NCBI GenBank assembly: GCA_046350615.1
Contig: JAXMAA010000001.1
Coordinates: 8,480-72,479 of the forward strand
Origin: Candidatus Saccharimonadales bacterium
GTDB taxonomy: Bacteria > Patescibacteriota > Saccharimonadia > Saccharimonadales > UBA7683
Direction: 5' to 3'
Length of the DNA stretch: 64,000 bases
This document shows positions 3,519-41,555 of this stretch, piece after piece. Made by a program: the position numbers and the translations under genes. Within the stretch, counting starts at the first letter, position 1. Each line of letters opens with the position of its first letter. Below the pieces are notes generated by a model. It saw nothing but the letters and a program-made list of their open reading frames with translations. It searched no databases and had not been told where the DNA came from.

Positions 3519-4877
3519 ATGAGTAAAAAACTTCCTGTTGTTGCAATTGTTGGCCGTGCAAACGTTGGTAAATCCAGCTTATTTAATCGTGTATTGCAGC
3601 GCCAAGAGGCAGTCGTAGCGCGCGAGGCCGGGACCACTCGCGACGCAGTGTATCGCACTGTTGAGCACGGCGCACACCATTTTTGGTTGGTTGATACCGC
3701 TGGCTTAAAAGATCCTGAGGATGAATTTGAAGCCACTATTCAAGAACAGATCGAGGAAGCCGCCGCAGCTGCTGATGTAATTATTGTCGTTGTTGAGGCG
3801 CACACTGCAATTACCGAAGAAGATCGCCGCGTGGCCAAAAAAGCTTTGAAGAGTAAAAAACCCGTGCTACTCATCACCAATAAAGTTGACCAGGTAGCCA
3901 AAACTGAGAGCGAAACCCCCTGGGAGCGGCTGGGCATTAAAGAAATCATCAGCACCAGTGCCACGCAAAACCAAGGGATCTCAAGCGTTTTAGACGCCAT
4001 TACAGATCTGATTCCGCCACGCGAGGCACTTCCCGAAGATAATGTTTTGAGAATTGCCTTGCTCGGACGCCCAAATGTCGGCAAAAGCTACCTTTTCAAT
4101 ACACTCGCCAAAAAGCAACAAGCTGTAGTGGCTAACGTTGCTGGCACCACGCGAGATGTCAATAAAGTTCGAGTCCGTTACGAGGGTCGTGATATTGAGC
4201 TCCTTGATACTGCTGGCATCAGAAAAAGTGGCAAGATAGAAAAAGGCATTGAAAAATTCAGTGTTTTAAGAAGTCTGCAAGCCATTGAACAAGCGGATGT
4301 CTGCCTGCTTTTAATGGATGTGAACGAACATTCCACTGCACTCGATCAAAAAATTGCGGGCTTAATTAAAGAGGCGGGGAAGGGATTGGTGCTTGTTGTC
4401 AGCAAGTGGGATAGCCTCGAGAAAACAGCCTATACGCGGGATTCAATTGCCCCAGTCATTACACACAACTTTCAGTTTGTGCCATGGGCGCCACTTATTT
4501 TTACCAGCGCGGAAACTGGCCAAAATGTTACTAAACTGTTTGATCTCGCCATGGATATCTATGCTCGCCGGCGCGCTAAGCTTAAGACCACCGAGCTCAA
4601 CCGCATACTAGCGACCAGCCTGCAGGCGCATCCGCCAGCTGGTCTCAAAAGCCGTCACCCAAAGCCACGCTACCTGGTGCAAGATGATGTCGCTCCGCCA
4701 ACCTTTCGCCTCTACGGTGCCCATCTTGAATACCTCCACTGGAGCTGGAAGCGCTACTTAGAAAAAAACCTCCGATCACAAATCGACTACAACGGCACCC
4801 CAATCCGTTTCTACATGATGAACAACGCCCGAAAATCCGGCAAAACCAAGAAGTTCCTGCCAAAAGTTGAGGAGTAA
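3519..4877 (+). CDS. der: Ribosome-associated GTPase Der/EngA
   Basis: Two tandem GTPase domains (GRANVGKSS..DTAG; GRPNVGKSY..DTAG..SKWD) followed by a KH-like C-terminus. Confidence 0.95.
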   Translation: MSKKLPVVAIVGRANVGKSSLFNRVLQRQEAVVAREAGTTRDAVYRTVEHGAHHFWLVDTAGLKDPEDEFEATIQEQIEEAAAAADVIIVVVEAHTAITEEDRRVAKKALKSKKPVLLITNKVDQVAKTESETPWERLGIKEIISTSATQNQGISSVLDAITDLIPPREALPEDNVLRIALLGRPNVGKSYLFNTLAKKQQAVVANVAGTTRDVNKVRVRYEGRDIELLDTAGIRKSGKIEKGIEKFSVLRSLQAIEQADVCLLLMDVNEHSTALDQKIAGLIKEAGKGLVLVVSKWDSLEKTAYTRDSIAPVITHNFQFVPWAPLIFTSAETGQNVTKLFDLAMDIYARRRAKLKTTELNRILATSLQAHPPAGLKSRHPKPRYLVQDDVAPPTFRLYGAHLEYLHWSWKRYLEKNLRSQIDYNGTPIRFYMMNNARKSGKTKKFLPKVEE

Positions 4878-5539
4878 TGCCGGCAACGACACTTCGACTT
4901 CCAGAACCACACATACTAAGACCAGCGGAAATTGGCCTTTCTATTAGTCAACAAGAAATCACAAGACTTGGAGCATGGATAGCAAGAAATTCCGTACACC
5001 AGCGAGCGCCGCATATACATAGCACAAGTAGAGATAGCCGGGACCATTCTTGGCTCAGAAAAACAAAGCCCTTATTGGTTCCCAGCGAGTTCACGCCACC
5101 CGAAGACGTAGCCGGCTTAGTGCGAGACCTGTACGACGCGCTTCATGAGCCAATGCAGCAATTTATTCGAGCACCACTTGAAAAAATAACCACCCGATAC
5201 GCCGCATCTGGCCACACACATCTACCTGGAGATGATGCAGCAGAAGGCCATCTAGATTACTATCCCAGCGCAAATTTCTACACCGGCAGAACTAACCGCG
5301 GAGGAAAGCTACTCGTCGCTCAAACAGCCAGCCCAAGAAGCGTCGAACAAATTCGAGAGGAAGCATACGATGTCACACCACAACCCGGAACGTTTCTTTT
5401 ATTCTTCGGAACCATCTTCCCTCACTGTGTTGATGCCATTCCAGCCGCCGCAACCGGCGCACGTACTTGTATAAATCTGACCTACTCTGACGGAAACCCA
5501 CAAGACCCTTCACACCCACGCTTCACTTCCGCCAGATAA
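4877..5539 (+). CDS. Hypothetical protein, possible 2OG-Fe(II) oxygenase fold
   Basis: The start overlaps the der stop (TAATG). The pattern HTHLPGDD ... GGKLLV ... PQPGTFLLFFGTIFPHCV ... RTCINLTY resembles HxD...H...R dioxygenase spacing; this is a weak call. Confidence 0.45.
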   Translation: MPATTLRLPEPHILRPAEIGLSISQQEITRLGAWIARNSVHQRAPHIHSTSRDSRDHSWLRKTKPLLVPSEFTPPEDVAGLVRDLYDALHEPMQQFIRAPLEKITTRYAASGHTHLPGDDAAEGHLDYYPSANFYTGRTNRGGKLLVAQTASPRSVEQIREEAYDVTPQPGTFLLFFGTIFPHCVDAIPAAATGARTCINLTYSDGNPQDPSHPRFTSAR

Positions 5540-5577
5540 AGACAACGCCTGAAAATAGAGGAATAGGCCCCCGTCCC

Positions 5578-5602
5578 GTCATTCCCAACTTGATTGGGAA
5601 TC
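5578..5602. repeat. GTCAT hairpin module (left end of GIY-YIG cassette)
   Basis: GTCATTCCCAACTTGATTGGGAATC. 8-bp stem ATTCCCAA/TTGGGAAT with loop CTTGA. Ends 7 nt beyond the GIY-YIG stop codon. Confidence 0.85.
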
Positions 5603-5609
5603 TCGTCCG

Positions 5610-5909
5610 TTAGCCAAGTAGGCTGTCATAGAGATCAGTCCAATCTGAATTCTGGCTCTCAATCAATTCAATCTTCCATTGCCGATTCCACCGTTTCAGC
5701 TGCTTTTCTCGAGTCATCGCATCTTCTGAGGTAGGGTGTTCTTCAAAATAGACAAGCTTATCTATTTGATACTGTTTTGTAAAACCATCTGTAAGTTTCT
5801 CTTTATGTTCATACACCCGGCGAATCAAATCATTCGTAATTCCAATATACAGGGCGCCCCTCTTGGGCCGGCTTGCCAGTATGTATACGTAGAAAGTTCG
5901 CAATTTCAT
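5610..5909 (-). CDS. GIY-YIG nuclease family protein (small stand-alone URI-domain type)
   Basis: FYVYILAS..GALYIGITNDLIRRVYEHK ... REKQLKRWNRQWKIELIE. I place the start at the internal Met (ATG 5907-5909). The ORF-track N-terminal extension only translates the flanking hairpin. Confidence 0.85.
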   Translation of the reverse strand: MKLRTFYVYILASRPKRGALYIGITNDLIRRVYEHKEKLTDGFTKQYQIDKLVYFEEHPTSEDAMTREKQLKRWNRQWKIELIESQNSDWTDLYDSLLG

Positions 5910-5924
5910 GTACTTATTGTACGA

Positions 5925-5949
5925 GATTCCCAACCAAGTTGGGAATGAC
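5925..5949. repeat. GTCAT hairpin module (right end of GIY-YIG cassette, inverted)
   Basis: GATTCCCAACCAAGTTGGGAATGAC. Same 8-bp stem as 5578-5602 with loop CCAAG, in the opposite orientation. Lies 15 nt upstream of the GIY-YIG ATG. Confidence 0.85.
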
Positions 5950-5975
5950 GCCCGGCGAAGGGTATACTTAGACAC

Positions 5976-6584
5976 ATGGCACTATTCCAACAGTTTAATC
6001 AGCGAAAAGATCGGATTTTTGAGTTAGCGCAAGATCAGTGTAGTGAAACGGGGCAAACGGAAAGTTTTATTACGTTGGTTTTTGGGCTTGGCAACATCGG
6101 GAAGCAATTTGATGGTACACGCCATAATAGCGGCTTCTTGACGCTCGATGCTTATCGAGAAGTGAACGATTTCCCGGAGTGGCAAGAAAAGCCAAAATTT
6201 AAGGCATTCACCTCCGAAAGCTTCATAAACGGCAAAAAAGTGATCCTCGCCAAACCAACTACGCTCTACAACTTGGCGGGAGAGAGCATTCGGGCTATTA
6301 AAGATTTCTACAAACTAGCAAACAGCGATATCACCGTAGTGCACGATGAGCTCGATTTACCGTTCAGCACCGTCAAAGAGAAGCAGGGAGGGGGATCCGC
6401 TGGCAGTAACGGTCTAAAAAGCATTATCAGCCACATCGGCGAAGACTTCCGCCGCATCCGCATTGGCATTAAAAACGACCAGCTGGAAAAAATGGATCCA
6501 GCCGATTTCGTGCTATCAAAATTTTCCAGCACAGAAAAAAAGCAGCTCGATCAAATAATTAAAGCTGCTTTAGAAAAAATCTAG
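5976..6584 (+). CDS. pth: Peptidyl-tRNA hydrolase
   Basis: VFGLGNIGKQFDGTRHNSGF signature plus VVHDELDLPF. The true start may be the TTG at 6075, because the first ~33 residues are not Pth-like. Confidence 0.9.
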   Translation: MALFQQFNQRKDRIFELAQDQCSETGQTESFITLVFGLGNIGKQFDGTRHNSGFLTLDAYREVNDFPEWQEKPKFKAFTSESFINGKKVILAKPTTLYNLAGESIRAIKDFYKLANSDITVVHDELDLPFSTVKEKQGGGSAGSNGLKSIISHIGEDFRRIRIGIKNDQLEKMDPADFVLSKFSSTEKKQLDQIIKAALEKI

Positions 6585-8632: not shown

Positions 8633-9004
8633 TCAACTTAGATATTTCTGTATACGCTGCTGATCTTCACGGTTTTTAACATTCTTAGCGTATAGCTCAA
8701 TAAATGTTACAGTGCCCTCGCTTATGACGGCTATAAATACCAATCGAAGCTTGCCACTCATGGAGCGCGTTTCGGTATCCAATCGCATTTTTATAACTTC
8801 ATGTGTCTGTGACTGGTGTAAGATTGTGGCTCGCTTGCCATCAAAGAACAGTGATCGATATTTTTTGAGCTCCTCATCACCTCCAGACACATATAACTGC
8901 TCTATAAGCGCATAGACGGGTTTTAGATCGGACTTTAGGGTTCGCACCTTCTTGCCAAGTGCTTTTATATCTTTTTTAAACTCCGGGCTCTCATTAAAGT
9001 TCAT
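8633..9004 (-). CDS. Candidate toxin, RelE/ParE-fold-like, partner of the Panacea antitoxin
   Basis: Overlaps the upstream antitoxin gene by 11 nt. The C-terminal pattern KMRLD..SGKLRLVFIAV..EGTVTFIELYAKNVK resembles the RelE/ParE beta-core. Confidence 0.5.
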   Translation of the reverse strand: MNFNESPEFKKDIKALGKKVRTLKSDLKPVYALIEQLYVSGGDEELKKYRSLFFDGKRATILHQSQTHEVIKMRLDTETRSMSGKLRLVFIAVISEGTVTFIELYAKNVKNREDQQRIQKYLS

Positions 9005-9785
9005 CTTCTGGCTCGGTGACAGCAGTTAGTTTGGTACGGTAAAACACATAACGGTAATCTAGAGGTTTGCCCTGACCCGCCACCACCCATGGCGTATCAT
9101 AGTGGGATAGTTCTGTTAACTCCTTGGCCGTCTTGTCACTTAGTCGTGCAAGAGTTTCGTCTATATGTCTGAGTTCGCGTGCAGATAGGCCATCAAATGG
9201 TACTGGTTTTGTTGGCAAGTACTTCTTCTGCTTGTTCTTGAAGAAATTGGTTTCAACAACCTCAAGCTCGCCTTTGGTCTTCATGCCCTCTACGACACTC
9301 TTGAATTCTGCTACAGGTGATGGACCGTAGTGGTTATGAATGTAAGTCAAACCGGTTATGGACTTACCATGTTTTTCGTAGTAATCAAAATCTATGAAGT
9401 ATAGCAGTTTGTATAGAACGGTTTCACCAACATTTGGCTTAGCACCGACTTTTTCCAAAACGTAGGCAAGCACTTCGCGCAATTTATTGTGGTCAACAAT
9501 TTGTATCGTTTCTCTGGGCTCTATACTTGGTTTGCTGAAACTGGTTGGTTCGACAGCTTGTTCTGTCGGTAGCTTACCGGTAATTAAATCTGATGGAGAA
9601 ATCTGATAAAACTCAGCAATGTCGTTAATCTGGCTTAAATCTGGCTGGCGTTTGCCGGCCTCTAAGTTGGCGTAGGTTGCCCGCGCCATGCGTAGTTTAT
9701 TTGCTACGTCTTGCTGGCTCAGGCCAGCATTGTCGCGCAGTGCTGCTATTGTCTTGCTGAAATCCATGAGGAACCTTTCTTTCAT
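8994..9785 (-). CDS. XRE-HTH plus Panacea (DUF4065/SocA-like) domain antitoxin
   Basis: N-terminal HTH LRDNAGLSQQDVANKLRMARATYANLEAGKRQP. C-terminal VLYKLLYFIDFDYYEKHGKSITGLTYIHNHYGPSP is typical of DUF4065. Confidence 0.75.
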   Translation of the reverse strand: MKERFLMDFSKTIAALRDNAGLSQQDVANKLRMARATYANLEAGKRQPDLSQINDIAEFYQISPSDLITGKLPTEQAVEPTSFSKPSIEPRETIQIVDHNKLREVLAYVLEKVGAKPNVGETVLYKLLYFIDFDYYEKHGKSITGLTYIHNHYGPSPVAEFKSVVEGMKTKGELEVVETNFFKNKQKKYLPTKPVPFDGLSARELRHIDETLARLSDKTAKELTELSHYDTPWVVAGQGKPLDYRYVFYRTKLTAVTEPEDEL

Positions 9786-15703: not shown

Positions 15704-18088
15704 ATGAGCAAAAATAATCTTGTTATTGTAGAGAGCCCGGCTAAGGCGAAAACTATCGAGAAGTATCTTGGTAGTGACTTTAAAGTGATGTCTTCGGTTG
15801 GGCACATCCGTTCAATTGCCAAAAAAACTAAAGATGGCAAAGAGGCAATTGATGTAAAAAACGGTTTTGAAACTGTATACGAGATTGATCCGGATAAAAA
15901 GAAGGTCATCACCGAGCTAAAAAAAGCCGTCAAAGAAACGCAGGCTGTTTGGCTAGCAACTGATGAAGACCGTGAGGGTGAGGCAATTGCCTGGCATTTG
16001 TGTGAGGTCCTGAAACTTGATCCGAAGACCACCAAGCGGATTGTGTTTCATGAAATCACCAAAGGAGCGATTGAAGAGGCGATTAAAAATCCGCGGTACG
16101 TAGATATGAACCTCGTACATGCCCAGCAAGCACGGCAGATTTTAGATAGGATCGTTGGCTTTGAGCTCTCACCAGTCGTCTGGCAGAAGGTGCCAGGTGG
16201 TAAATCTGCTGGCCGAGTGCAATCACCGGCTGTTCGATTGCTTGTGGAGCGTGAGCGTGAAATTGAAAGTTTTGAAGGTAGCTTTCAGTTTAAAGTTACT
16301 GCTGAGTTTATGCATAATGGCGACCTTGTTAAGGCCGAGCTACCACAGCGTTTTGATACCGAAAAAGAGGCTCAAGAGTTCTTAGAAAGCCTCAAAAACG
16401 CTTCATTTACAGTAGGTAGCGTTGAAACTACTCCTGGCACTCGTAACCCTTCAGCGCCGTTCACTACCAGCACCCTGCAGCAAGATGCCAACAGTAGGCT
16501 CGGTTTTAGCGCCAAAGCCACCATGGCAGCCGCCCAGAAGCTTTACCAAGAGGGTAAAATCACCTACATGCGTACTGATTCGGTCAATCTAAGCAGCCAA
16601 GCTTTGGCCCAAATGACTGAGTTTATCAAAAAAGAGTACGGCGAGAAGTATCATCAATTCAGAACCTTCAAAACCAAGAATTCGAGCGCACAGGAGGCTC
16701 ACGAAGCCATACGCCCAACAGATGTGAAAACCACCTCTGCCAGTAGTGATAGCTACAACCAGAAGCTCTACGAACTAATCCGAAATCGCACCCTAGCAAG
16801 CCAGATGGCGCCTGCTAAACTGGAAAAGACTACAGTGAGCATTATAATTTCAACCAGCAAATACATCTTTGAAGCTAAAGGTGAGGTGATTTTATTTGAT
16901 GGCTTCCTGAGAGTATATGGCGGCAGCAAAAAAGACCCTGAGATTTTACCAGCACTCGTTGCGGACGATCGGCTGGAGCTAGAAATTGCATCTGCTCGCC
17001 AAATATTTGCCCGTCCACCAGCACGCTACACCGAAGGCTCGCTGGTTAAAAAACTTGAAGATCTTGGCATCGGCCGCCCATCCACCTACGCTACGATCAT
17101 CAATACAGTACAAGTACGAGGCTATGCAGAAAAAGGTGAAAGTGAAGGCGAACCACGCGATGCAATCGTTTTATCATACGTGCCATCCGGTCATTCTGAA
17201 CTTGTTTCAGGATCTACAAACGCCCAAGAGCAGATTCCGAAACAAGTTCGGAATGGCATCGTGCGTGAAGTTGTGCAAGAAAAAACCGGCTCAGATAGGG
17301 GCAAACTAGTACCGACTGCTGCTGGAAAAGTTCTCAACAACTTTCTAGTAGATCACTTTGACCAAGTGGTAGACTATGGTTTTACGGCTGCTGTAGAGGA
17401 AGAATTTGATCAAATTGCTGCTAATAAGTTGGCTCGTAATAAGATGTTAAACGAGTTTTATGATCCGTTTCACAAATTGATTGAAAACTCCGGCAGCATT
17501 GACCGCTCAACTGTCGCCCAAGCACGCGAGATAGGGGTACACCCTAAAACCGGAAAACCGATTTTAGCTCGATTTGGACGCTTTGGCCCCATGCTGCAGC
17601 ACGGTGCGACTGAAGATAAAGAGGCAAAACCGCAATTTGCGCCCCTTCCAAAAGGCGCAAAGCTTGAAACCGTCACGCTCGAGGAGGCCCTAAAAGCCTT
17701 CGAGCTGCCGCGAACCGTTGGCCAAACTGAAGATGGCAAAGAAATCAAAGCGAATATTGGCCGTTTTGGGCCTTATATTCAAGTGGAGAAGCTGTTTGTA
17801 AGTATTAAACCACTCGACCCGCACACAATCACACTCGAGGAGGCAAAAGAGCTCTACGCCGCTAAATTAAAGGCTGAGGCAGAGAAAAATATTGCCGATT
17901 TTGGCGATGGTATCAAAGTGTTAAACGGACGGTTCGGCCCCTACATAACCGACGGTACCAAAAATGCCAAAATTCCAAAAGACACCGACCCCAAGAAGGT
18001 TACCCACGAAGAAGCCAAAAAGCTCCTCGCCGAAGCCCCAGCAAAAGGCAAGCGCACCTTCAAGCGCCGTACTTCTAAAAAGAAATGA
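15704..18088 (+). CDS. topA: DNA topoisomerase I
   Basis: TOPRIM LVIVESPAKAKTIEKYLG, DEDREGE, active-site YMRTDS. The C-terminus has three GRFGPY-type repeats and a basic tail instead of Cys4 zinc fingers. Ends with TGA. Confidence 0.95.
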   Translation: MSKNNLVIVESPAKAKTIEKYLGSDFKVMSSVGHIRSIAKKTKDGKEAIDVKNGFETVYEIDPDKKKVITELKKAVKETQAVWLATDEDREGEAIAWHLCEVLKLDPKTTKRIVFHEITKGAIEEAIKNPRYVDMNLVHAQQARQILDRIVGFELSPVVWQKVPGGKSAGRVQSPAVRLLVEREREIESFEGSFQFKVTAEFMHNGDLVKAELPQRFDTEKEAQEFLESLKNASFTVGSVETTPGTRNPSAPFTTSTLQQDANSRLGFSAKATMAAAQKLYQEGKITYMRTDSVNLSSQALAQMTEFIKKEYGEKYHQFRTFKTKNSSAQEAHEAIRPTDVKTTSASSDSYNQKLYELIRNRTLASQMAPAKLEKTTVSIIISTSKYIFEAKGEVILFDGFLRVYGGSKKDPEILPALVADDRLELEIASARQIFARPPARYTEGSLVKKLEDLGIGRPSTYATIINTVQVRGYAEKGESEGEPRDAIVLSYVPSGHSELVSGSTNAQEQIPKQVRNGIVREVVQEKTGSDRGKLVPTAAGKVLNNFLVDHFDQVVDYGFTAAVEEEFDQIAANKLARNKMLNEFYDPFHKLIENSGSIDRSTVAQAREIGVHPKTGKPILARFGRFGPMLQHGATEDKEAKPQFAPLPKGAKLETVTLEEALKAFELPRTVGQTEDGKEIKANIGRFGPYIQVEKLFVSIKPLDPHTITLEEAKELYAAKLKAEAEKNIADFGDGIKVLNGRFGPYITDGTKNAKIPKDTDPKKVTHEEAKKLLAEAPAKGKRTFKRRTSKKK

Positions 18089-32889: not shown

Positions 32890-32958
32890 GTCATCCTGAA
32901 CTTGTCTCAGAATCCATGGCCTTTATTAGACTAGATCCTGAAACAAGTTCAGGATGAC
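32890..32958. repeat. GTCAT-module unit with perfect 16-bp terminal inverted repeat
   Basis: GTCATCCTGAACTTGT ... ACAAGTTCAGGATGAC, 69 bp in total. The right half also forms its own hairpin ATCCTGAA/TTCAGGAT. Confidence 0.8.
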
Positions 32959-35602: not shown

Positions 35603-35705
35603 CAAAACTCACCGGTGTCATCCCGGACTTGATCCGGGATCTAGTATTTGAACTGGATTCCCGTCTTCACGGGAATGACGGACGTGAGGTTTTTAGATTC
35701 AGGTT
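35603..35705. repeat. 103-bp double-hairpin GTCAT module, copy A
   Basis: Identical at all 103 positions to 41302-41404. Contains the hairpins ATCCCGGA-CTTG-ATCCGGGAT and ATTCCCGT-CTTC-ACGGGAAT. Confidence 0.95.
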
Positions 35706-41301: not shown

Positions 41302-41404
41302 CAAAACTCACCGGTGTCATCCCGGACTTGATCCGGGATCTAGTATTTGAACTGGATTCCCGTCTTCACGGGAATGACGGACGTGAGGTTTTTAGATTCA
41401 GGTT
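41302..41404. repeat. 103-bp double-hairpin GTCAT module, copy B
   Basis: Identical at all 103 positions to 35603-35705, in the same orientation. Confidence 0.95.
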
Positions 41405-41437: not shown

Positions 41438-41555
41438 GTCATCCCCAACTCGATTGGGGATCCAGTTATGTACTAGACTCTCAGTATAGCTTCGTTACAC
41501 TCAGTACATAATTCGACCCTTCTTTTAGCTACCAAATTAGCAAGCTGAGAATGAC
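41438..41555. repeat. GTCAT-module unit (hairpin plus distal inverted terminus)
   Basis: GTCATCCCCAACTCGATTGGGGATCC at the left end and GCTGAGAATGAC at the right end. Confidence 0.5.

Follow-up and report, generated by a model that had tools for sequence, protein, structure and literature searches.

A 374-bp unit between der and pth in a Candidatus Saccharimonadales (Patescibacteria) metagenome-assembled genome is very probably an Ssn/SRM locus, i.e. the gene of an ssDNA endonuclease placed between inverted copies of its cognate hairpin, and a long-term resident of this position. We describe the anatomy of this unit within the 64-kb stretch of DNA that was analysed (the window), the association of gene and hairpins across the nuclease family, the presence/absence and inversion polymorphism of the locus in relatives, and an insertion of the repeat in topA. 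The Ssn/SRM phenomenon has already been published and the locus itself is confirmatory; new here are an empty site in one relative (L088), an inverted cassette in another (L002), the 66-nt topA insertion and an exact 103-nt duplicate of a gene-less repeat element. The idea that the unit is a mobile cassette, first put forward in a reading made from the letters alone (the sequence-only reading), is a hypothesis that now has some fresh circumstantial support.

The published system is that of Chenal et al. 2025 (Nat Commun, PMC11893778), who described an NTS-ssnA-NTS layout in which the NTS is CGTCATTCCCGCGMAVGCGGGAATCYRG, an oriented form of dRS3. SsnA of Neisseria meningitidis (NMV_0044/NMB0047) is a 94-aa protein, and degenerate relatives of the NTS, termed SRM, flank small single-domain GIY-YIG ssnA genes across many phyla; at least one SRM was present at 71% of the homologs in that survey, and SRM were present on both sides at 42% (PMC11893778). 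The purified N. meningitidis SsnA and three homologs bound the repeat as ssDNA only and had no activity on dsDNA or RNA. Cleavage falls a few nt upstream of the repeat, is Mg2+-dependent, and is abolished in SsnA by Y6A, Y17A and E64A; the 3 nt that precede the palindrome are important for cutting and the C that directly follows it for binding (PMC11893778). In Neisseria, Ssn/NTS lowers transformation by NTS-flanked DNA, a role shown only in N. meningitidis, and the application promoted for these enzymes is site-specific ssDNA cutting (PMC11893778). The sequence-only reading knew of no established description that linked such a nuclease to such hairpins; this part of it was mistaken, as the NTS-ssnA-NTS layout is such a description.

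The unit and its neighbours in the window are as follows.

3519-4877: der/EngA, left neighbour of the unit
4877-5539: 220-aa ORF overlapping the der stop
5577-5606, plus strand: left arm of the terminal inverted repeat, an SRM-like CGTC-tagged hairpin module (CGTC / ATTCCCAA / CTTGA / TTGGGAAT / CTCGT), core 5578-5602
5610-5909, minus strand: putative ssn-type gene for a single-domain GIY-YIG nuclease of 99 aa (PF01541, E=3.7e-16)
5921-5950, minus strand: right arm of the terminal inverted repeat, the same module as the left arm, core 5925-5949
5976-6584: pth, right neighbour of the unit

Direct lookup in the 64-kb window recovered both of the 25-mers quoted in the sequence-only reading exactly where they had been placed, GTCATTCCCAACTTGATTGGGAATC at 5578-5602 (plus strand) and GATTCCCAACCAAGTTGGGAATGAC at 5925-5949. 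They form the greater part of an inverted repeat of 30 nt (5577-5606 / 5921-5950), in which 29/30 positions are complementary. The core ATTCCCAA-N(3-9)-TTGGGAAT occurs twice in the window compared with 0.00 times in 100 shuffles, and the 25-mer with up to three mismatches occurs three times in the window and 0 times in the shuffles; an origin of the arm sequences by chance is excluded. The GIY-YIG gene had also been placed correctly, on the minus strand at 5610-5909 between a der-coupled gene and pth, with gaps of 7 nt to the left module (3' side, measured from the stop codon) and 15 nt to the right module (upstream of the start codon). A mechanical ORF that extends to 5975 is read-through of the hairpin and not the true ssn start.

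The CGTC tags of both flanking modules point outward, in agreement with the outward GTCAT ends reported before. Folded as ssDNA, each module forms a hairpin of 8-9 bp (8 bp in the earlier description), with free energies of -7.3 kcal/mol (z = -3.0) on the left and -8.7 kcal/mol (z = -4.0) on the right, and the right hairpin has an alternative 9-bp form with a 3-nt loop. The length first given for the unit, 372 bp, becomes 374 bp once the full CGTC tags are counted.

The assignment of the window protein to the Ssn family rests on its Pfam domain, its size, the spacing of its predicted catalytic residues and the canonical NTS that flank some of its homologs, and is in this sense a prediction from sequence. 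The GIY-YIG domain (PF01541, E=3.7e-16) covers residues 6-80 of the 99 aa, and Pfam finds no second domain; single-domain Ssn proteins span roughly 90-150 aa, a range into which the window protein falls. The predicted catalytic residues, Y9, Y21, R31 and E68, are invariant in an alignment of 22 homolog sequences (A2). The Tyr/Tyr/Glu spacing (9/21/68) is that of N. meningitidis SsnA (6/17/64) if a 1-residue insertion is allowed: the first interval is 11 plus the inserted residue, and the second is 47 in both proteins. The window protein has 5391 homologs, and the one that matches at 100% is a Ca. Saccharimonadales MAG protein; homologs with 54-66% identity are flanked by repeats that fit the exact N. 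meningitidis NTS consensus. A sequence search of the PDB gave a single, distant match, the UPF0213 protein 1ZG2 (E=4.9e-5), and no Ssn structure; neither NCBIfam nor PADLOC holds a model for the protein.

We surveyed the surroundings of 80 homologs from species-representative genomes of many phyla, including Alpha-, Beta-, Gamma- and Deltaproteobacteria, Planctomycetota, Omnitrophota, Chloroflexota, Bacteroidota, Cyanobacteria, Acidobacteriota, Rickettsiaceae and three other Patescibacteria, with no Neisseria locus among the 80. The gene was bracketed on both sides by modules with outward tags in 44 of the 80, at least one module lay within 200 nt in 69, and no module was nearby in the other 11. 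Module density was 5.45 per kb near the gene and 0.34 per kb beyond 300 nt from it, a difference of about 16-fold. With the published SRM search pattern, at least one SRM was found in 54/80 and SRM on both sides in 25/80, and the exact N. meningitidis NTS consensus was present at nine of the 80 loci. Three loci, L001, L002 and L003, whose Ssn proteins are 93%, 76% and 75% identical to the window protein, are bracketed head-out by modules with a stem, ATTCCCAA, identical to that in the window; L004-L007, which come from a different organism (66% identity), are likewise bracketed head-out, there with the stem GTCATTCCCGCGAAAGCGGGAATCC of a Neisseria-type NTS. Related loci that lack ssn, 63 kb in all, yielded no convincing module. 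These observations support the view that nuclease and hairpins belong together.

The survey bears on a different reading, in which the hairpins are REPs that serve the host or spread independently and the nuclease is merely among them or regulated by them; the roles considered were those of mRNA stabilisers, parts of promoters or terminators, and repeats moved by another enzyme. Such a reading could appeal to Di Nocera et al. 2013 (BMC Genomics, PMC3733652), who saw no dedicated enzyme for CGTC-tagged REPs (these "apparently lack a dedicated transposase") and discussed RNA-level roles, to the 11/80 homologs with no module nearby, and to the right hairpin of the unit, which overlaps with the -35-like hexamers of two divergent promoter-like sites, one for ssn and one for pth. 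However, the 16-fold enrichment of modules beside the gene holds across phyla with a fixed orientation, and the four purified homologs bind and cut their own flanking repeats as ssDNA and are inactive on RNA (PMC11893778). The promoter-like matches at the right hairpin are also no more frequent than chance allows (two -35/-10-like matches compared with 1.0 expected, not significant), and a promoter reading of this 5' hairpin was rejected. The 3' hairpin is not an intrinsic terminator because no T-run follows it, and the sole terminator-like match (5572-5558, minus strand) lies outside the module. We consider independent REPs of this kind very unlikely.

The repeat is also present elsewhere in the window. 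A structural definition was needed because plain motif searches undercount the repeat family; TCATTCCCAA with one mismatch gave seven matches compared with 5.4 expected, which is not above chance. Defined as GTC, an 8-bp stem starting AT, a loop of 4-5 nt and then C, modules numbered 10 in the window (the flanking two included) compared with 1.3 in shuffles, and there is an extra degenerate module at 32890 that is the partner of an intact one. The scattered modules without a nuclease gene that had been noted from the letters alone are therefore real; beyond the ssn unit there are eight or nine, nearly all in gene-less head-to-head doublets.

17190-17257: gene-less head-to-head doublet in topA, modules 17190-17214 (plus) and 17233-17257 (minus), fold -17.7 kcal/mol, z = -5.1
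32890-32958: gene-less doublet, intergenic, degenerate module 32890-32914 (plus) and intact module 32934-32958 (minus), fold -21.9 kcal/mol, z = -8.3
35603-35705: 103-nt REPIN/MITE-like element, copy 1, with doublet 35617-35641 (plus) and 35656-35679 (minus), fold -21.3 kcal/mol, z = -4.1
41302-41404: 103-nt doublet element, copy 2, an exact duplicate of copy 1
41438-41462, plus strand: solo module (GTC / ATCCCCAA / CTCGA / TTGGGGAT / C), 34 nt to the right of the 103-nt element

Five pairs of modules can be recognised (17190/17257, 32890/32958, 35617/35679, 41316/41378 and 5578/5949), all of them head-to-head with outward tags, and only 5578/5949 encloses a gene. An 8-bp stem starting AT and a loop of 4 or 5 nt are common to all 10. 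The tag is CGTC in six modules, TGTC in two, and GGTC and TGCC in the two of topA; the tails are CTC, CTA, CCA or, in the right topA module, CTG. The stems of the doublet modules differ (e.g. ATCCCGGA, ATTCCCGT and ATCCTGAA), and they do so by compensatory changes: 100% of the cells in the stem alignment are paired, four of the eight pairs have changed on both sides, and controls in a slid register collapse. Rfam gave no match to any of the modules, its sole match in the window being a tRNA-Glu.

The published SRM pattern, HGTCWYN(0-2)YYVSBRHN(0-5)WNVSBRGN(0-2)RNCYNB, matches four modules in the window (35616, 35653, 41315 and 41352) compared with 0.14 expected, and these four are both modules of each 103-nt copy. 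The two modules that flank ssn fall outside the pattern because their stem has CCCAA rather than CCCGC, where S/B/R is required. The pattern is a hand-made search tool and not a functional definition, and its failure to match the flanking modules is probably a limit of the search pattern rather than a real difference. The window contributes a variant SRM, A/T-richer in its stem and outside the published pattern, and as such variants are missed by it, this suggests that the published counts understate the family. Taken as a whole, the shared structure supports the gene-less copies as derivatives of the same repeat family as the modules that flank ssn. The sequence-only reading had named two outcomes that would count against it, i.e. 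hairpins and gene occurring independently at orthologous loci, or other copies of the nuclease consistently lacking the modules; the association in 69/80 homologs therefore points the other way, and the same outward geometry is seen in 5/5 window pairs.

Comparison of the der-pth interval in related genomes, proposed in the sequence-only reading as a search for empty sites, found both occupied and empty alleles. The window, L001, L002 and L003 all carry the cassette between der and pth, and the three orthologous loci have the left-arm module where the window has it. Across these cassette-bearing relatives the identities of Ssn, der and pth fall together at one locus, which therefore indicates vertical inheritance. 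In L088 the site is empty: the der stop is followed by GCTATACTAGACAT (14 nt) and then the pth ATG, and neither hairpin nor gene is present. The pth of L088 is 76% identical to that of the window, i.e. closer than the pth of L002 or L003, and a GCTATACT motif is found directly upstream of pth both in L088 and in the occupied genomes. The contrast between the clean L088 site and the occupied relatives therefore indicates that gain or loss involved the entire unit, as a single block. In L002 the orientation of the unit with respect to der and pth is reversed, and its inner flanks have turned with it; such a flip is what recombination between the two inverted arms would yield. The ssn copy of L001 is apparently damaged at its 5' end/start.

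The gene-less doublets have been gained recently in the window lineage. The two 103-nt copies match exactly and have unrelated flanks, and the topA doublet is an in-frame stretch of 22 aa (66 nt) that is absent from 12/12 orthologs with 50-77% identity. No target-site duplications were recognised at the cassette junctions or at the 103-nt element.

GIY-YIG is a classical homing-endonuclease fold, and the presence/absence polymorphism at the locus could be read in the same sense, i.e. as the mark of a free-standing homing endonuclease that would cleave the hairpin palindrome, as dsDNA, in alleles lacking the cassette and be copied into them during repair. The sequence-only reading had offered this as one option, a homing nuclease with its target hairpins, and it did not survive the comparison. 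The empty allele of L088 offers neither a hairpin nor a palindrome as a target, the protein consists of one 99-aa domain and lacks a DNA-binding extension, the Ssn family has no dsDNA activity (PMC11893778), and the surroundings hold no intron, intein or phage, the neighbours being chromosomal housekeeping genes. Homing is in our judgement highly improbable.

A stronger case can be made for the other option in that reading, an autonomous element with MITE-like derivatives, i.e. an active transposable element (a GIY-YIG 'insertion sequence') whose nuclease also mobilises the gene-less doublets as MITEs. The 30-nt terminal inverted repeats around a single nuclease gene have the look of such an element, an IS-like architecture also remarked on by the authors of the Ssn paper (PMC11893778), and the empty der-pth site in L088, the inverted cassette in L002, the exact 103-nt duplicate with unrelated flanks and the lineage-specific in-frame insertion in topA all agree with it. 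An insertion sequence would be expected as several near-identical copies with their gene, at non-orthologous sites and with target-site duplications. Some observations speak against the transposon reading: the unit contains the only GIY-YIG gene in the 64 kb, it occupies the same der-pth locus in four diverged relatives with the concordant identities of vertical inheritance, no target-site duplication is visible at its junctions, and the L001 copy is apparently damaged at its start. The nuclease chemistry also comes without a joining step; to our knowledge GIY-YIG hydrolases form no covalent intermediate, and we know of no joining activity among them. An autonomous transposable element is therefore unlikely, and the gene-bearing unit resembles a RAYT-like, vertically inherited resident with REPIN-like satellites more than it does a hopping IS.

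In REPIN-RAYT systems, GTAG-tagged REPs are associated with a domesticated IS200/IS605-type Y1 (HUH) transposase. A tentative extension of the Ssn/SRM reading, which we regard as possible rather than probable, is that the unit belongs to a GIY-YIG counterpart of such systems, in which Ssn would be the missing dedicated enzyme of the CGTC-REPs and would spread the repeats by ssDNA nicks followed by host repair or replication. The empty site, the block inversion, the 103-nt duplicate and the topA insertion are the traces expected of such a system. The link from nuclease to spread of the doublets is circumstantial because Ssn proteins are plain hydrolytic nucleases that are not known to carry out strand transfer or transposition; the window protein may be what spreads the doublets. 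If it is, the counterpart would be a transposition-like route outside any known transposase chemistry. Ssn-driven spread was raised as an idea by Chenal et al. 2025 (PMC11893778), who point to the IS-like, REP/RAYT-like architecture and propose domestication as a hypothesis. In a search of the literature, theirs was the one paper to appear on the mobility or structure of Ssn.

For the 374-bp unit as an Ssn/SRM locus we propose the following mechanism, modelled on the four Ssn proteins studied in vitro. The protein would recognise the hairpin only when it is single-stranded, e.g. at replication forks or in transforming DNA as it enters the cell. Binding would depend on the stem sequence and on the C after the palindrome, and cleavage on the unpaired GTC tag; the cut is predicted to fall in the tagged strand, a few nt to the 5' side of the tag, and to require Mg2+ together with Y9, Y21 and E68. 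Both modules face outward, and the predicted cuts therefore lie just outside the unit and on opposite strands. The ssDNA-specific binding and cleavage in this scheme are taken from the literature on the family and not from the window protein; by analogy, we infer that the window protein cuts its flanking hairpins. The other modules in the window would be REPIN-like gene-less doublets recently gained in the lineage, and the unit itself would have been inherited mostly vertically at der-pth in the Saccharimonadales clade, with occasional loss or inversion of the whole block. DprA is encoded 1.7 kb from the ssn unit, and a transformation-related role as in Neisseria is therefore conceivable.

The results extend the Ssn/SRM pairing to the Saccharimonadales (CPR/Patescibacteria). 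The block-wise presence, absence and flipping of the unit and the recent doublets bear on how CGTC-type REPs, dRS3 and some Rickettsia palindromic elements spread, and the same comparative evidence bears on whether Ssn is the agent of that spread. The gene that received the in-frame doublet insertion, topA, is an essential gene. In addition, every new nuclease-hairpin pair is a candidate reagent for site-specific ssDNA cutting.

Among known systems, the I-TevI-type homing endonucleases and the UPF0213/YhbQ proteins have the GIY-YIG catalytic core in common with the window protein. The window protein differs in that it lacks a DNA-binding domain and a dsDNA target and is not encoded in an intron or phage, and its similarity to UPF0213 is distant. 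The likeness to REPIN-RAYT is one of arrangement: in both, a single gene for an enzyme of ssDNA hairpins is flanked by inverted hairpins, gene-less doublets are dispersed, and the gene itself is passed on vertically at a fixed locus. In contrast to those systems, the enzyme here is a GIY-YIG hydrolase and not an HUH/Y1 transposase, and the tag is CGTC and not GTAG. The ssn unit is therefore REPIN-RAYT-like in architecture and not a member of that group; we know of no cleavage-joining chemistry in GIY-YIG enzymes, and it would be premature to assume transposition by a RAYT-like mechanism.

The repeats themselves match the CGTC-tagged REPs, a class that includes the dRS3 of Neisseria and RPE-4/RPE-6 of Rickettsia (PMC3733652). 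These REPs have an unpaired CGTC/TGTC tag (variant CCTC), a stem of 8-9 bp in which the first two pairs are A-T, a loop of 4-5 nt (CTTGA or GAAG types) and a 3-nt tail, and they are found mostly as head-to-head dimers, with occasional copies inside replication or repair genes, in five phyla that do not include the Patescibacteria (PMC3733652). The window modules show every one of the defining features, the in-frame copy here being that in topA, and differ in having a nuclease gene between them, as do the repeats of Chenal et al. 2025.

With Ssn/NTS the unit has several features in common: the nuclease is a single-domain GIY-YIG protein (99 aa here, 94 aa for SsnA) with the same Tyr/Tyr/Glu spacing, inverted hairpins with a CGTCAT...ATC core bracket the gene, and the repeat is also dispersed in the genome. 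The differences concern the host, which here is a Saccharimonadales MAG whereas the examples in PMC11893778 are mainly from Pseudomonadati; the stems, which here are A/T-richer (ATTCCCAA, with loop CTTGA) and lie outside the literal SRM pattern; and the distribution of the repeat, which occurs here mostly as tight head-to-head doublets and there in clusters around surface-protein genes.

The right hairpin of the ssn cassette overlaps a pair of divergent promoter-like sites (5916-5968), whose -35-like hexamers are formed by its two arms: the site facing ssn reads TTCCCA-18-TACAAT, the one facing pth TTGGGA-18-TATACT. At the three related loci with ssn (L001-L003) the TACAAT box that follows the hairpin is conserved; the promoter-like sites in this interval are not above chance, with 2 observed vs 1.0 expected.

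The ssn ortholog at L001 is 93% identical (L001 1531-1575 corresponds to window 5880-5924), and has ACG instead of ATG at the start codon and, near codon 10, an indel of 1 nt; these two changes leave a called product of 89 aa in which the GIY tyrosine is missing. Either this copy of ssn is decaying, or the low-coverage contig contains an assembly error. In the mechanically called ORF at 5610-5975 on the minus strand, which begins upstream of the true ATG, the hairpin is translated into the peptide tail SFPTWLGIS, and two database homologs (P0017 and P0054) carry hairpin-derived tails as well (MSFPRKRES, VIPMKMGIQ). The upstream starts of all three are over-called. Such tails offer a convenient way to spot NTS-type repeats by text search in protein databases.

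The genes around the cassette include:

4877-5539, plus strand, 220-aa ORF overlapping the der stop codon
7679-8536, plus strand, dprA, encoding DprA (PF02481, E=2e-71)
8633-9004, minus strand, 123-aa ORF overlapping the next gene
8994-9785, minus strand, antitoxin-like gene with HTH and SocA/Panacea domains

The 220-aa ORF was found at none of four related der-pth loci (L001, L002, L003 and L088, the last without the cassette) and had no match in Pfam or NCBIfam; PADLOC gave a weak '2OG' match (E=1.3e-3). Directly after it, 5545-5568 resembles the der 3' end of L001, like a leftover copy, which suggests a lineage-specific insertion adjoining the cassette. DprA protects ssDNA in natural transformation. 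Its gene lies 1.7 kb from the cassette; this proximity matters in view of the modulating effect of SsnA on transformation in Neisseria (Chenal 2025, PMC11893778), but may also be coincidence. The 123-aa ORF, which had no family match, and the SocA/Panacea-domain gene form a possible toxin-antitoxin pair (8633-9785, minus strand).

Head-to-head hairpin doublets occur elsewhere in the window:

15704-18088, topA (DNA topoisomerase I), with a CGTC hairpin doublet inserted at ~17187-17257
35603-35705, 103-nt element with a doublet, copy 1
41302-41404, exact duplicate of this element, copy 2

Beyond its doublet the 103-nt element has outer inverted flanks (CAAAACTCAC... / ...GTGAGGTTTT), the sequences around the two copies are unrelated, and a solo module (41438-41462) lies 34 nt right of the second. 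The element resembles a REPIN/MITE-like unit that was copied recently. In topA, an in-frame insertion of 22 residues (66 nt), about VPSGHSELVSGSTNAQEQIPKQ, coincides exactly with the doublet and is missing from 12/12 orthologs compared at 50-77% identity. As an intragenic repeat, the topA doublet resembles the Rickettsia palindromic elements, and it parallels the preference of intragenic REPs for replication and repair genes (Di Nocera 2013, PMC3733652).
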